Part shown: one piece after another, positions 3,533-59,548 of the stretch
How the letters are laid out: each line of letters opens with the position of its first letter
Position numbering within the stretch: the first letter of the stretch is position 1
Source of the DNA: Candidatus Pristimantibacillus sp.
GTDB lineage: Bacteria > Bacillota > Bacilli > Paenibacillales > Paenibacillaceae
NCBI GenBank assembly: GCA_048976605.1
Contig: JBHGUX010000031.1
Coordinates: 19,029-83,028, forward strand
Direction of reading: 5' to 3'
Length of the DNA: 64,000 nt
The notes under the pieces: generated by a model
The model's input: only the letters and a program-made list of their open reading frames with translations
Told to the model about the DNA's origin: nothing
Database searches by the model: none
Translations under genes and position numbers: made by a program

Positions 3533-5398
3533 TTGTTGCAACTTCAAGTAACGAACAGTCCTTTTAATCAGGAGCAAGTTGAACTTTTGAATCGTCTTCT
3601 ACCGTCGTTGACAGAGACACAGCAAATTTGGATTAGCGGATATTTATCCGCACTCAGCAGGTCAGCTTTAACAGGTGCGGAGCAGCACGCTGCTGCTACA
3701 GCAGAACTAGGAACCGTGGCTACTCTTTCTTCAGTAGTTAGTCAACCAGTCGGGTCACGTGAAGTTACCATTCTCTTTGGTTCTCAGACCGGCAACTGCC
3801 AGAGACTAGCGGGCAAATTGTCCCGTAAACTAGAAGAGCAAGGCTATCAAGTTTCACTTGCAGCAATGAATACCTTTAAGCCAAATGGCTTGAAGAAGGT
3901 TGAGAATTTGCTTATTCTGGCAAGTACTCACGGTGAAGGAGATCCACCAGACAATGCGATATCATTCCATGAGTTTATTTATAGCAAAAGAGCTCCTCAG
4001 CTTGAGAGCCTATGGTACTCCGTGCTTTCGCTGGGTGACACCTCTTATGAGTTTTTCTGTAAAACAGGTAAGGATTTCGATCAACGTCTAGAGGAGCTTG
4101 GCGGTCAACGTCTTAGCCCGCGTGTCGATTGTGATCTGGATTATGATGAGCCAGCTGCTGAATGGTTTGACAATGTTATCAGCGCCCTCAATCAGCGATT
4201 GAATGCTTCTGCAACCGCAGCTACAGTGTCTGTGAGTGCGACGGGCAGCGGGACAATGGCCGAACAATCTATATATTCCCGTACCAATCCATTCAAGGCG
4301 GAAGTACTTGCGAATATTAATCTGAACGGACGCGGCTCTGACCGTGAAACCAGACATCTAGAGTTGTCTCTTGAGGGTTCTAACCTGCAATATGAGCCAG
4401 GTGATTGCTTGGGTATTTGCCCGGAGAATCATCCTGAATTGGTGAACAGCCTAATTGAAGCGATGGGTTGGAAGGCTGACGAATTGGTACCAATTAATAA
4501 AAAGGGCGAAGAGCGTACTTTGCTTGAGGCACTCTCGCAGCATTATGAAATAACGGTACTAACGAAGCCTTTAGTGGAGCAAATCGCCCAAATAACTTCA
4601 AGTGCTAAACTTCGTGAGTTGTTGTCAACAGGTCATGAACAAGAGCTTAAGAGTTATATCGCGGGACGGGATCTGTTGGATCTTGTTCAAGAGCTTTCAC
4701 CATGGCAAATCTCAGCACGCGACTTTGTCGCTATTCTAAGAAAATTGCCTGCACGTCTGTATTCTATTGCGAGCAGCTTTAAGGCTAATCCAGATGAAGT
4801 ACATTTGACAATCAGAGCAGTTCGCTACGAGTCACATGGACGTGATCGGTACGGAGTTTGTTCGGTACAATGTGCAGAGCGATTGCAGCCAGGTGACACT
4901 TTGCCGATCTATATCCAGCATAATCCTAATTTCAAGCTTCCTGTGGTTTCGGATACGCCAGTTATTATGATTGGTCCTGGAACAGGAGTTGCTCCATTCC
5001 GAGCATTTCTGGAGGAACGTGAAGAGCTTGGTGCGGAAGGTAAAACATGGCTGTTCTACGGTGATCGTCATTTTGTAACCGACTTCCTCTATCAGACGGA
5101 TTGGCAGCGGATGCTTAAAGATGGAGCATTAACTCGTCTTGATGTCGCATTCTCTCGTGATACAGAAGAAAAGGTGTACGTACAAAACCGTTTGATTGAG
5201 AAGAGTCGTGAAATCTTCCAGTGGCTGCAAGAAGGAGCTCATGTCTATATTTGCGGAGATGAGAAGCATATGGCACATGATGTTCATGCGGCACTAATCA
5301 GCATCCTCGAAAGTGAAGGTAAAATGAGTCACGAAGAGGCAACGGCTTATCTAGCCGAAATGCAGCAACAACAGCGATATCAAAGAGATGTTTATTAA
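3533..5398 (+). CDS. cysJ: Sulfite reductase (NADPH) flavoprotein alpha subunit
   Basis: Flavodoxin FGSQTGN, RLYSIASS FAD motif, GPGTGVAPF, VYICGD, terminal RYQRDVY. Confidence 0.97.
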   Translation: MLQLQVTNSPFNQEQVELLNRLLPSLTETQQIWISGYLSALSRSALTGAEQHAAATAELGTVATLSSVVSQPVGSREVTILFGSQTGNCQRLAGKLSRKLEEQGYQVSLAAMNTFKPNGLKKVENLLILASTHGEGDPPDNAISFHEFIYSKRAPQLESLWYSVLSLGDTSYEFFCKTGKDFDQRLEELGGQRLSPRVDCDLDYDEPAAEWFDNVISALNQRLNASATAATVSVSATGSGTMAEQSIYSRTNPFKAEVLANINLNGRGSDRETRHLELSLEGSNLQYEPGDCLGICPENHPELVNSLIEAMGWKADELVPINKKGEERTLLEALSQHYEITVLTKPLVEQIAQITSSAKLRELLSTGHEQELKSYIAGRDLLDLVQELSPWQISARDFVAILRKLPARLYSIASSFKANPDEVHLTIRAVRYESHGRDRYGVCSVQCAERLQPGDTLPIYIQHNPNFKLPVVSDTPVIMIGPGTGVAPFRAFLEEREELGAEGKTWLFYGDRHFVTDFLYQTDWQRMLKDGALTRLDVAFSRDTEEKVYVQNRLIEKSREIFQWLQEGAHVYICGDEKHMAHDVHAALISILESEGKMSHEEATAYLAEMQQQQRYQRDVY

Positions 5399-56132: not shown

Positions 56133-56255
56133 TTGCTGATTTGAAATATGAATAGGATCAACAATAGCTGTCCTGCAGAGTATTCATTAGATCACTTCTC
56201 TAGGACAGCTTTTTCTTGCGGTCAAGATAATACACCTAACAGAGGAGGAGTTATC

Positions 56256-56681
56256 ATGGATGCTGAACAGAAGTTATACGATGCAGTTGTTGAGCTAATT
56301 AAAGTGAGGTACCCACAAGGCTGGGGCGGGGCAGCTGCAATGAGATTAGAAGATGGTACGATATTAACAAGCATAGCTCCCGAGATTATCAACGATTCTA
56401 CTAATCTATGTATCGAGACAGGGGCTATATTAGAAGCTCATAAACGAAATAGGAACATTACTCATTCAATATGTGTTGTACGTGATGATGAGAAATCAGA
56501 ATTCAAAGTGCTGTCACCATGCGGAATCTGTCAAGAAAGACTGTTTTATTGGGGTCCAACAGTTAAAGTAGCAGTTACCTTACCCGGTCAAGCCCTTACT
56601 TTTAAAACACTATCAGAAGTCCAGCCCTACCACTGGTCCGCTGCCTACGATGAATTCAAACAGCAATGGTCAAATCGATAA
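56256..56681 (+). CDS. Cytidine deaminase-like protein (blasticidin S deaminase type)
   Basis: CIETGA and SPCGICQERL Zn motifs; GAGGAG RBS gives start 56256. Confidence 0.88.
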   Translation: MDAEQKLYDAVVELIKVRYPQGWGGAAAMRLEDGTILTSIAPEIINDSTNLCIETGAILEAHKRNRNITHSICVVRDDEKSEFKVLSPCGICQERLFYWGPTVKVAVTLPGQALTFKTLSEVQPYHWSAAYDEFKQQWSNR

Positions 56682-57049
56682 ATTCGCAATGATAAGGATA
56701 GTTATTCAAATGAAATTAAGAGATTTGTAGAAGCACCTATCATAGGGGGGCTCGAAGATTGAAAGGGAAGGATCGGAGTGAACTACAACTCCGAGTTAGC
56801 CTTATCGATTTAGAAGGTGCTTAGTTATTTTTTTCTTTGATTCAATATCCCCAAGGCTCAGAATGCTAATTAAATTAGACCTATTGTGACTATGGCGAAT
56901 GTATGATTTACACCCAAAGTAAGACCAAATAATGCGACTTTGCTGAAAAGTAAAAAGTCATTATGTAGCATGTTGTTTAGTAGCTGCTACAGGTCTCAAT
57001 TTCAATTGAAGTAGACGCACACTCAACTGAAAAATTATGGAACAATCAC

Positions 57050-57078
57050 TTGAAATAAGAACAAATGTTCGATATAAT
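57050..57078 (+). promoter_or_regulatory. Sigma-A promoter with an embedded LexA (Cheo/SOS) box
   Basis: TTGAAA (57050-55), 17-nt spacer, TATAAT (57073-78); AGAAC-AAAT-GTTCG (57058-71) matches CGAAC-RNRY-GTTCG. Confidence 0.8.
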
Positions 57079-57110
57079 GCTAATAGAAACTGTTGAAGGG
57101 GCCGGGAAGA

Positions 57111-58004
57111 ATGACGATAGCAAGTGCCATTGATCAATTCGAGCTGCGTTTTCCAACAGAAGAAGCTTGTCTATCCTATTTAATTGGTTTAAAGTGGCCA
57201 AATGGTTATCGCTGCCCTCGTTGTAAGAATTGTTCTGCATTTACGATCACAACCCGTAATTCACCTCTTTATGAGTGCCGTTCTTGCCGTCACCAAACAA
57301 CTCTTACAGCCGGTACGATCATGGAGAAGAGCCGAACCTCTATGCGCAAGTGGCTATTGACAATATTTCTTGTCACCCAGTCGAATAGTACGGTTAATGC
57401 AGTGTGGCTGTCCGAATATTTAGAGGTGACGTACAAGACAGCATGGGCAATGCTTCATAAGATTCGTCAAGCGATTCACCAAATGGACAATAACATTTTG
57501 CTTGAAGGAGAAATGAAAGCAGCAGTAGAGCATTACGGCAAACCACATAATCCAACCATCTCGAAACATTCGCAAGAACATCCTGTCCTCGTTAGCGCTG
57601 CTTGCGAACCTCATACACCGACCTACTACAAATTCAAGGTTATCCCGCTAGAACATTTAAACGGTAAGACAATAACCCGCTACGGTGAAAAAGAATTTAG
57701 GAAAGAATATGTTTCAAATAAAAACAAGAATCCTCTCATCGTTCATCAACTATACCGTCAAGGTGACACTAGATTTATTAGAAGCTTGTTTAAGAAAGCA
57801 TCCAAATGGATGAACACAGCATTCCGTGGAATTGGCCGACACTATTTGCAATTTTATTTGGACGAGTTTTGTTTTCGATTGAACTTCTCTACTCATCAAG
57901 ATGTTCTGAGTCATCTATCAGAGCTCTGTTTAAGTTCGCCTCTTGTAAGGAAGCATCCTATCAACCTAAAAACCACATTACTAGACTCCACCTCTGCTGC
58001 GTAA
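57111..58004 (+). CDS. IS1595-family transposase-derived protein, catalytic triad apparently lost
   Basis: CPRC/CRSC Zn ribbon, TAGTIMEKSRT, VTYKTAW HTH, YLQFYLDEFCFRLN tail; the VEVDE motif reads EMKAAVE; no terminal inverted repeats seen. Confidence 0.8.
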   Translation: MTIASAIDQFELRFPTEEACLSYLIGLKWPNGYRCPRCKNCSAFTITTRNSPLYECRSCRHQTTLTAGTIMEKSRTSMRKWLLTIFLVTQSNSTVNAVWLSEYLEVTYKTAWAMLHKIRQAIHQMDNNILLEGEMKAAVEHYGKPHNPTISKHSQEHPVLVSAACEPHTPTYYKFKVIPLEHLNGKTITRYGEKEFRKEYVSNKNKNPLIVHQLYRQGDTRFIRSLFKKASKWMNTAFRGIGRHYLQFYLDEFCFRLNFSTHQDVLSHLSELCLSSPLVRKHPINLKTTLLDSTSAA

Positions 58005-58064
58005 TTTTTCTATACTAAATTATGGGTTTATTTTGTGATTTTTAATAAGAGTATTTTTCGTTTT

Positions 58065-58340
58065 CTAGTAGTTTTGAGTTAGAAAATGGTGCTTTTGTTG
58101 TTTAGTTGTTCTTTTGATGCTTAGTTGTGCGTAGTTGTTCTTTTGTGCAATTGTTCTTTTGTTCTTTTGTTTTTTGTTCTTTTTAGAGGTGGCTCAGGAG
58201 TTGTTAACGAACTTTTTCTGAGCTAAGGGAAGAGTGCTCGAAAGTAGTGAAAGAAGTATTAAGGAATTAAGGTCGAGGTAATGAGGTACTGAGGTATTGA
58301 GGTATTGAGGAATTAAGGAATTAAGGTGTTAAGGTATTAG
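58065..58340. repeat. Low-complexity tandem tracts (TTGTTCTTTTG-like; 8-bp GAGGTATT/AAGGAATT)
   Basis: Visible directly; also a ~25-bp direct repeat TTTTCTGAGCT(A/G)AGGGA(A/G)GAGTG near 58213 and 58370. Confidence 0.85.
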
Positions 58341-58522
58341 ATGATGATTTGAATATATGTGTTTATGAAATTTTCTGAGCTGAGGGAGGAGTGGATCAAA
58401 CTTGTAAAATATGGATAGTGGTCTATTTCTGGGTTAAGGGAGGTTAGATGACATACGATTCTGAGTGATTCACCGCTGAACGGGGAAACGCATAGGCTAA
58501 TAAACAACTATAAGCGTGAATA

Positions 58523-59548
58523 TTGGGAGGAATCGAGATGAACAGACGGGTATGGATGTCGCTGCTGCTTGCAGTGACGCTACTTGCAACTGCGGTACTT
58601 GCGGGCTGCGGCGGTGGCAATAAGGGAAATACGAAAATTGTAATTGGGGAGGTAACTAGATCACTTTTTTATGCGCCTGAATATGTTGCAGTGGCGAAAG
58701 GATTTTTTGAGGAAGAGGGACTTGATGTTGAGTTGACGACGACGCCAGGCGGTGACAAGACGATGACTGCGCTTTTGTCGAATGCGATTGATGTGGCGCT
58801 TGTTGGTTCTGAAACTTCCCTCTATGTACAGCAACAAGGAACGGATGATCCTGTCATTAACTTTGCACAACTGACGCAAACAGATGGCACATTCCTAGTG
58901 GCGCGTGAACAAGATGATTCATTTGATTGGGATAAATTAAAAGGGACTGTCTTCTTGGGGCAAAGAAAAGGTGGAATGCCGCAAATGGCAGGTGAGTTCA
59001 CATTGAAAAAGTATGGCATTGATCCGCAAAAAGATCTTGAATTGATTCAAAATGTCGATTTTGCGAATATTTCTGCAGCGTTTGCATCTGGTACTGGTAA
59101 ATATGTACAGTTGTTTGAGCCTACTGCTTCTATTTTTGAGAAGGAAGGCCAAGGTCATGTTGTTGCATCGTTTGGTGTTGAGAGCGGGCATTTGCCATAC
59201 ACGGTATTCATGACTAAGCAAAGCTATATTAAGAAAAATAAAGAGGCTGTTCAATCTTTTACTAATGCAATTCATAAAGCACAACTTTGGGTAGCAAATA
59301 ATAGTGCGGAATCAATTGCCGATGTTGTCATTCCATTCTTTAAAGATGTTGACCGAGATATTGTAATAAGTTCTATCAATCGTTATAAAGAGCAAGGCTC
59401 GTATGCTGCGGACCCTATTATAGATGAGGCGGAATGGAATAATTTATTGGATGTCATGTCATCTGCTGGCGAGCTGAAACAGCGCACGGAGCATGATGTA
59501 ATTGTAAACAATACTTTTGCCGAGAAAGCGATCAATGAATTGAAATAG
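58523..59548 (+). CDS. ABC transporter substrate-binding lipoprotein, NMT1/SsuA family (YtlA-like)
   Basis: Lipobox LAGC, EVTRSLFYAPEYVA, GQRKGGMP. Confidence 0.92.
   Translation: MGGIEMNRRVWMSLLLAVTLLATAVLAGCGGGNKGNTKIVIGEVTRSLFYAPEYVAVAKGFFEEEGLDVELTTTPGGDKTMTALLSNAIDVALVGSETSLYVQQQGTDDPVINFAQLTQTDGTFLVAREQDDSFDWDKLKGTVFLGQRKGGMPQMAGEFTLKKYGIDPQKDLELIQNVDFANISAAFASGTGKYVQLFEPTASIFEKEGQGHVVASFGVESGHLPYTVFMTKQSYIKKNKEAVQSFTNAIHKAQLWVANNSAESIADVVIPFFKDVDRDIVISSINRYKEQGSYAADPIIDEAEWNNLLDVMSSAGELKQRTEHDVIVNNTFAEKAINELK

Follow-up and report, generated by a model that had tools for sequence, protein, structure and literature searches.

A DDE-less IS1595-type gene with a LexA-box promoter and inverted repeats in Candidatus Pristimantibacillus and other Paenibacillaceae

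Several non-catalytic proteins derived from transposases act as inhibitors, among them InsA of IS1, Inh of Tn5/IS50 and the KP repressor of the Drosophila P element; the IS1595 family of insertion sequences (ISs) is regarded as related to IS1. In the RAYT/REP (repetitive extragenic palindromic) systems, domesticated TnpA genes of the IS200/IS605 type are flanked by REP repeats, while PIF/Harbinger transposons encode a Myb-like DNA-binding protein. Control of mobile elements by LexA is known from integron integrases and from SXT-type integrative and conjugative elements. To our knowledge, bacteria offer hardly any documented case of protein-coding, non-catalytic IS derivatives that bear terminal inverted repeats (TIRs) and stay under long selection, although such derivatives are familiar from eukaryotes. 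Here, we describe a gene for a 297-aa IS1595-type protein without the DDE catalytic triad, and the element around it, in a 64,000-nt stretch of DNA from Candidatus Pristimantibacillus sp., family Paenibacillaceae (assembly GCA_048976605.1, contig JBHGUX010000031.1, positions 19,029 to 83,028 of the forward strand). This whole stretch is referred to below as the window, and positions are those of the window unless another contig is named.

The IS1595 family has been defined previously (PMC8101967), and LexA-controlled transposases have been described for ISCR1 and ISCR8 in a paper which notes that few reports connect the SOS response with IS regulation (PMC13393415); passages of that paper also cite IS10 and Tn5 as linked to SOS. 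In our literature searches, no paper connected IS1595 with LexA or described a DDE-less clade or an SOS-wired IS1595 lineage, and searches on Paenibacillus SOS regulons that include a transposase, on inactive or domesticated bacterial transposases and on Paenibacillus mitomycin C transcriptomes yielded nothing on this family. The window gene is best explained as the coding core of an old, non-autonomous IS1595-family derivative, which consists of a left inverted repeat (IRL), a promoter predicted to be repressed by LexA, the open reading frame (ORF), a tandem-repeat arm and copies of the right inverted repeat (IRR). With moderate confidence, we propose that its product is an SOS-induced, non-catalytic protein that would bind the TIRs of its own element and that probably regulates transposition.

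The gene, its promoter and its inverted repeats

The ORF (57111–58004, + strand) is intact, with ATG 57111 as the most plausible start, and it retains the Zn ribbon, helix-turn-helix (HTH) and YLDEFxFRxN motif that a first-pass annotation of the window had recognized. The Zn ribbon matched Pfam PF12760 (Zn_ribbon_IS1595) over residues 15–62 (E = 4.6e-12, 46 bits against a cut-off of 25.4), and its four cysteines (C35, C38, C56 and C59) are invariant in 71 relatives. It is followed by the HTH (about residues 78–128), a truncated RNase-H-like core (134–212), a helix carrying YLDEFCFRLN (249–258) and a disordered tail (287–297, encoded by 57969–58001) that terminates in -SAA. Scores against two other family profiles fell below the curated cut-offs: PF12762 (DDE_Tnp_IS1595) reached 19.7 bits against 27, matching profile positions 114–153 (the last 40) only, and NCBIfam NF033547 reached 69.2 bits against 75, in two separate stretches. 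Besides the cysteines, residues W29, G32, R49, Q62, W81, Y108-K109-T110, R119 and Y249 are invariant, and the conserved blocks comprise a “KWP.G” box, the “TYKTAW..HKIR” HTH and the nearly invariant D251, E252, R256 and N258.

An AlphaFold2 model of the protein (mean pLDDT 90, pTM 0.88) placed the Zn ribbon, helices, β1–3, an α-helix and β4 in that order, followed directly by helices, and the central fold is predicted to be an RNase-H-like core that lacks its last strand. Foldseek returned only weak matches in the PDB, to DDE transposases and integrases (ISCth4, Mos1 and mouse mammary tumour virus integrase; best E = 0.02), which would fit a truncated RNase-H-like remnant and add little further information. 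The PADLOC defence-system models gave no match to the protein, while PHROGs contained one family, of unknown function, that aligned with the N-terminal half only.

Upstream of the gene is a sigma-A-type promoter (57050–57078, + strand), with TTGAAA at 57050–57055 and TATAAT at 57073–57078, separated by a 17-nt spacer. This promoter agrees with the consensus at 11 of 12 positions and is the top sigma-A-like site within 56600–58600. A LexA operator of the Cheo-box type, AGAACAAATGTTCG (57058–57071, no strand assigned), lies wholly inside the spacer, just as the first-pass annotation had placed it between the −35 and −10 hexamers. In the 6.49-Mb genome, 94 exact GAAC-N4-GTTC cores were counted, with 93 occurrences expected from composition; at about one per 69 kb, the core is too sparse for its place in the spacer to be put down to chance. 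The LexA protein of the host shares 72% identity with that of B. subtilis, and Cheo-type boxes precede both lexA (five boxes) and recA (CGAATGTATGTTCG); the agreement of these boxes and the similarity of the repressor make the box at 57058–57071 a credible LexA operator. The five Cheo-like boxes upstream of lexA (contig C19, about position 5147, minus strand) fall within 150 nt, an unusually dense cluster.

According to the first-pass annotation the gene had no terminal inverted repeats, a statement that must be revised. An alignment of five similar copies from one genome revealed a 30-nt motif ahead of the gene that recurs behind it as the reverse complement, and a weight matrix built from 19 instances (background 0.004–0.007 matches per kb in the window's own genome) located the same ends around the window gene. 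The IRL (56835–56864, − strand; TTTGATTCAATATCCCCAAGGCTCAGAA on the + strand) scored 34.8 bits, and its start adjoins the T-run of the upstream gene's terminator. On the right, an inner IRR copy (58215–58244, + strand; TTTCTGAGCTAAGGGAAGAGTGCTCGAAAG) scored 35.8 bits and an outer copy (58372–58401, + strand; TTTCTGAGCTGAGGGAGGAGTGGATCAAAC), which is the best partner of the IRL, 26.3 bits; a repeat search added a third, weak IRR-like copy (58423–58455, + strand; beginning with CTATTTCTGGGTTAAGGGA). Together these form an imperfect inverted repeat of 28–30 nt, in which 56836–56863 pairs with 58373–58400 (28 nt, 71% complementary) and with 58216–58236.

The TIR was found in the expected orientation at 47 of 47 family loci and on both sides at 44 of them, with one match misplaced, and many family elements carry 2–5 tandem copies of an end. 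The repeats are homologous to the TIRs of an intact IS1595 relative, the Paenibacillus mellifer element L036. Their inner half (TTCTGAGC-N3-GGGGAT) is common to intact relatives, whereas the outer half is specific to each element: when every related group was represented by a single element, outer-half identity was 0.78 between the two ends of one element and 0.64 between elements (p = 4e-6). A strict form of the pattern occurs five times in the window's own genome, three times beside the window gene and once downstream of a paralogue, and matches above 25 bits were confined to the window gene, that paralogue on contig C56 and a gene-less remnant on contig C37. A genome-wide role for the repeat like that of REP sequences, by analogy with RAYTs, was considered and rejected, as strong matches exist at these three loci only.

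In most of the 45 family loci, the non-coding arms that separate the ORF from the TIRs consist of tandem repeats that are unrelated between elements (unit 5–130 nt), along with arrays of TIR copies at a period of 40–157 bp. The corresponding arm of the window element (58065–58455) contains two tracts that the first-pass annotation had already noticed: one at 58092–58183 (no strand), made up of 19-, 10- and 8-nt units rich in TTGTTCTT, and one at 58256–58339 (no strand), with about 8–10 copies of the 8-nt unit GAGGTATT. Most family arms are built in this way, and the repeats at 58092–58339 are therefore the right arm of the element. A search of 56600–58600 against Rfam gave no match, and the repeat tract and the leader of the neighbouring ABC operon are therefore not known RNAs.

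The C56 paralogue (loci L002/L003; C56:31511–32731, minus strand, outside the window) is also DDE-less, and its identity to the window protein is 62% over the N-terminal half and 48% over the C-terminal half. An insertion of roughly 120 aa, rich in Asn/Asp and of low complexity (ACAACA × 59), occupies the loop that follows the first β-strand and leaves the frame open. Two exact LexA boxes accompany the paralogue, and IRR copies lie at C56:31051 and C56:30763, followed by TTAAACA × 8. The gene-less miniature on contig C37 (C37:63323–63521) has an IRL and IRR 62 bp apart and a second IRR copy 77 bp beyond, and is a remnant resembling a miniature inverted-repeat transposable element or an internal deletion.

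Loss of the catalytic triad and history of the clade

The window's own genome holds no intact IS1595 element, and intact elements of other Paenibacillaceae (L035 and L036), with the motifs VELDD, SxDAYxSY, H-x6-K and YL(D/N)EFxxRxNRR, were therefore used as the alignment reference. In the 297-aa protein, VELDD is changed to EMKAA and the first Asp is lost, its position being occupied by K (by N, G, A or other residues elsewhere in the clade). A segment of about 24 residues is deleted, removing the strand and helix that carry the second Asp, and the H/N..K positions are not conserved, while YLDEFCFRLN is kept. The loss of the DDE positions suggested by the first-pass annotation was thus confirmed against intact enzymes. 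Among 100 full-length relatives, the deletion is common to 98 and the triad is absent from 99, the sole relative with a triad being an ordinary intact IS. The C-terminal E-x3-R(-x2-R) motif retains E252 (93% of the clade) and R256 (86%), with F259 at the third position, which is variable in the clade. Judged from these alignments, the protein is catalytically dead; lacking the triad and scoring below the curated cut-offs, it falls outside the IS1595 transposases as enzymes, yet is clearly descended from that family.

A maximum-likelihood tree united 44 DDE-less proteins in a single clade (SH-aLRT 100, stem 1.38), which branches from within intact elements of Firmicutes; because they are monophyletic, catalysis was lost once. 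The clade proliferated after the canonical residues had gone, both TIRs are conserved and D251 and E252 are nearly invariant, as might be expected of a transposase that is still active through a non-canonical active site. We consider such an enzyme very improbable: all three canonical positions vary within the clade, the strand and helix of the second Asp are missing, conservation in the family proteins is lowest in the central domain, the only conserved acidic pair sits on one helix, and neither target duplications nor identical copies were found.

A protein search returned 496 proteins, of which the named ones all came from Paenibacillus or Cohnella; the database labels of family genes read “transposase” or “IS1595 family transposase”. 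At the genome level, matches were found in 74 of 201 Paenibacillaceae species genomes (about 37%) and in 13 of 19 genera, with up to at least 11 copies per genome, and two further families of the class Bacilli likewise contain DDE-less copies with LexA boxes. One genome carries eight copies that are 46–77% identical, another five that are 91–96% identical (synonymous divergence, dS, about 0.1–0.2) with no intact cousin beside them. The plasmid and phage collections contained no close relative, their best matches being intact IS1595 elements at ~31% identity; for this reason the DDE-less clade looks chromosomal.

The ratio of nonsynonymous to synonymous substitution rates (dN/dS) was 0.09–0.33 in those 24 of 27 pairs that allowed an estimate, which included paralogues within genomes and orthologues between species, and shows that the ORF is under purifying selection. 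Among about 150 copies listed, three had an internal stop, so that more than 97% of those listed have open frames. These values leave next to no credence for a decaying relic, whose frame would be about to turn into a pseudogene and whose LexA box and repeats would be chance or functionless leftovers. Although the missing target duplications and the scores below the curated cut-offs are what a relic would display, it would account neither for the constraint on the open frames nor for the very large enrichment of LexA boxes and TIRs, the latter found at every one of the 47 loci.

In six cross-species orthologue pairs, one with dS >1 and another with dS saturated, the flanks were homologous on both sides; the syntenic copies have therefore stayed immobile through speciation. 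No conserved neighbour gene was found across the family loci, whose contexts include an mre/min-spoIVF cluster, an ABC transporter with PFL and, in the window, an M32 peptidase with an ABC transporter. A family copy of Paenibacillus thiaminolyticus (L143; CP094446.1, 3015316–3026233) sits within a cluster of mreCD, minCD, rodA, M23 and M50 peptidase genes and rplU-rpmA, with about 0.7–0.85 kb of non-coding DNA on either side, in a gene order that is otherwise highly conserved.

The copy in the window has a more recent history. At least 12 congeneric species lack DNA corresponding to 56133–58467 (no strand) in the equivalent intergenic region; in these species, the gene for the M32 carboxypeptidase lies ~158 bp from that for an ABC substrate-binding protein, with neither a family gene nor a TIR. 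The stretch holds a cytidine-deaminase-like gene with its terminator (56148–56822) and the whole element (56835 to about 58455), and the conserved right-hand sequence restarts at ~58468, roughly 12 nt past the third, weak IRR copy. Given this absence from the congeners, the element and, separately, the cytidine-deaminase-like gene were inserted in this lineage. The latter gene encodes 177 aa, and a nested stem-loop at 56731–56822 (−32.8 kcal/mol, z = −2.1), followed by a T-run, looks like its long-stem terminator.

A search of 40 elements, including that of the window and the five similar copies, found no target duplication at any offset 22–43 nt from the TIR motif; the best matches comprised 3–6 of 8 nt and were equalled by a cross-element control. 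Identical family copies were likewise absent within any genome examined, the lowest in-genome dS being about 0.1.

LexA boxes and the intact cousins

In the first 31 loci inspected, an upstream GAAC-N4-GTTC box with at most one mismatch was present in all 31, often as two boxes 26–29 bp apart. The test was then framed as 45 family loci, each from −250 to +20, with 450 control intervals taken from the same loci. The exact LexA core was present at 29 of the 45 family loci and in three of the 450 controls (0.7%; p about 5e-52). With one mismatch allowed, the counts were 43 of 45 and 56 of 450 (12%; p about 9e-37), and 32 of the 45 loci had two or more boxes. The paralogues thus carry LexA boxes as well, a point that the first-pass annotation had proposed to check together with dN/dS and synteny, both of which turned out as described above.

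The intact cousins examined were L036 and L063 (Paenibacillus mellifer), L035, L064–L067 and L175–L181. Their D-D-H-K and E-x3-R-x2-R pattern presumably makes them members of the ISSod11-type subgroup (Siguier, Gagnevin and Chandler 2009). In intact cousins from Paenibacillus, Alteribacter and other Bacilli, the −35 hexamer, a LexA box, the −10 hexamer and a further box follow one another just inside the left TIR. One of them is L036, a 1,007-bp unit with perfect 12-bp terminal repeats and an 8-bp target duplication, TTTTTATT, on both sides, in which two LexA boxes surround the −10 hexamer, inside the IRL and the target duplication. LexA boxes are also present in the intact elements L035, L064, L066 and L067 (exact box AGAACGAGTGTTCG) and in six intact elements of other Bacilli families (L175–L181), and a cousin from Psychromonas arctica (L112) has an E. 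coli-type SOS box, TACTGTATGTATAAACAG, over its −10 hexamer. Intact cousins were found in five of the 201 Paenibacillaceae genomes, and all five also carry DDE-less copies.

Because the intact cousins share the layout of a promoter with a LexA box inside the TIRs, LexA control was inherited rather than added by the host: SOS control belongs to the IS lineage, and the dead clade received its LexA boxes and TIRs from intact ancestors. A chance landing of the element beside a LexA box is likewise rejected for this clade, whose boxes are internal to the TIRs and, in L036, to the target duplication. This removes the main argument of the first-pass annotation, which had read host SOS control of an intact but non-catalytic gene as a sign of exaptation. 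Of that proposal, the loss of catalysis, the conserved LexA box, the purifying selection and the synteny stand, and host exaptation does not find support. Neither TIR loss nor the single-copy, broad distribution that mark a domesticated transposase was seen, as the family is multi-copy, restricted to 74 of the 201 genomes and flanked by TIRs at all 47 loci; on the other hand, target duplications, identical copies and a dN/dS near 1, which would also have spoken against simple domestication, were absent.

A host-exapted factor, that is, a damage-induced transcription or DNA-damage-response protein that serves the cell and uses the TIRs as operators only, would nevertheless explain the long-term purifying selection and cross-species synteny, the conserved LexA boxes, the persistence of the gene in the 69 of 74 genomes that have no intact cousin, and the long stem of the clade, which is consistent with a changed function. 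We judge it to be somewhat unlikely, since its LexA control is ancestral to the insertion sequence and not host-acquired, and since a patchy gene (in about a third of genomes) with multiple, divergent paralogues is unlike a core SOS gene. In addition, strong binding motifs are confined to the surroundings of the gene copies, the neighbouring genes vary between loci, and the window copy is an insertion missing from at least 12 congeners.

The spread of the clade could instead reflect a mobile, non-autonomous element whose protein binds the outer TIR half and acts as an adaptor, recruiting the transposase of a co-induced cousin. Such a hitch-hiker would be expected to keep both TIRs in inverted orientation, to share the inner TIR half and the DNA-binding domain with intact cousins and to retain the C-terminal helix, a possible multimerization surface, all of which are observed; the dispersal to many loci and at least 11 copies per genome after triad loss, the five copies of 91–96% identity in one genome, and the co-occurrence of DDE-less copies in all five genomes with intact cousins agree with it as well. 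This explanation, however, is distinctly unlikely. Target duplications are missing even at the five similar copies, no identical copies were seen (lowest in-genome dS about 0.1), the genome with the burst of copies has no intact cousin now, and rare mobilization alone would not hold dN/dS at 0.1–0.2 in immobile orthologues.

Proposed role and comparison with known systems

We return to the proposal of a non-catalytic protein that SOS would induce and that would bind its own TIRs. By analogy with known inhibitors, it most likely acts in a trans-dominant way to regulate or inhibit the cognate SOS-induced IS lineage. Inhibition of IS1595 transposition, the second suggestion of the first-pass annotation, would be the function that asks for the fewest assumptions, and a general role in SOS repair for the host is improbable. 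In the proposed mechanism, LexA would repress the gene until DNA damage induces it. The product, presumably short-lived, would attach to the TIRs of the element that encodes it and, by way of the inner TIR half that they have in common, could do the same at the ends of intact cousins, which respond to the same signal. Since the dead protein would be incapable of cutting DNA, it would act there as a competitor or poison subunit, and the TIR arrays would serve as its operators or decoys.

The ssrA tag recognized by ClpXP ends in Ala-Ala. The family proteins end in -AA in 21 of 120 cases (17.5%) and in -A in 44 of 120, compared to 0.3% and 5.4%, respectively, of the long ORFs of the window's own genome, and in the genome with eight family copies all eight end in -AA. 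The disordered Ala-Ala tail may thus be a ClpXP-type degron, and its resemblance to the ssrA tag suggests rapid turnover of the protein; we regard this as a lead.

Several observations weigh against an inhibitor. With no intact cousin in 69 of the 74 family-bearing genomes, it would usually lack a target, and yet purifying selection is steady. Nor is there an obvious need for an inhibitor to have both of its own TIRs, although the immobile syntenic copies keep both, and the clade somehow reached many loci after triad loss, without target duplications at 40 elements. The Ala-Ala ending, finally, is limited to some clades and not universal. Because the partner is mostly absent, both ends are kept and the spread followed triad loss, the host factor, the hitch-hiker and the non-canonical enzyme stay alive as rivals.

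In a further, doubtful but possible reading, the family would be a bacterial counterpart of heritable transposon immunity: fixed DDE-less copies would vaccinate the cell against re-invasion over millions of years. If so, the same LexA operator would switch on the dead copies and the active IS1595 lineage, and the dead protein would occupy or synapse transposon ends in the SOS window when the active lineage would otherwise burst. Its own TIR arrays would then be decoys, and when the damage signal ceases, the protein would be removed by virtue of its Ala-Ala tail.

Whichever role applies, the comparison adds an IS1595 lineage in Bacilli with LexA operators in the transposase promoter, along with a gammaproteobacterial cousin with an E. 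coli-type box, and a large, old clade that lost catalysis once and has nonetheless retained, under selection and at fixed chromosomal positions, an open frame, its two ends and the LexA switch. The label “transposase” on the family genes misleads IS counts and mobility prediction. The small gene, with its defined operators and defined ends, would also offer a tractable system for how bacteria and transposons restrain damage-induced transposition.

Compared to intact IS1595 elements, the DDE-less clade has the same Zn ribbon, HTH and YLDEFxFRxN helix, a homologous TIR core of the form TTCTGAGC-N3/4-GGGAT and the same LexA-box promoter inside the IRL, but it lacks the triad, the second-Asp segment and the 8-bp target duplications. 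Where intact elements are compact units of 1.0 kb, the clade has arms of 0.1–0.9 kb filled with tandem repeats and TIR arrays, and where mobile IS1595 copies are identical, those of the clade are divergent and syntenic between species.

With ISCR1/ISCR8, IS10 and Tn5, the clade shares a LexA operator over the promoter of a transposase-type gene and thereby the use of the host SOS signal; its operator differs in being of the Gram-positive Cheo type and in being conserved through an IS lineage and its dead descendants. Like RAYTs, the family gene is derived from a transposase and sits at a fixed chromosomal site between cognate repeats in inverted orientation. However, RAYTs keep their catalytic residues and REPs occur in hundreds of copies, whereas the clade protein has lost catalysis and its repeat is found at 2–3 element loci only. 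The Myb-like protein of Harbinger transposons offers another parallel, as a non-catalytic end binder that could recruit a separate catalytic transposase, a capacity that the clade protein would have by analogy; in Harbinger the two proteins are unrelated and come from one element, whereas in the clade a dead transposase, encoded by an element of its own, is the binder.

The closest parallel is with InsA, Inh and KP, in which the end-binding domain is kept and catalysis is lost, as in the clade, which has probably kept the multimerization domain as well and for which inhibition is expected by analogy. InsA and Inh come from the same active element that they regulate, whereas the clade protein comes from separate, fixed elements, mostly without an active partner in the genome. 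Finally, the clade differs from these non-catalytic transposase regulators in that its elements keep both ends and that its gene appears to be under LexA control.

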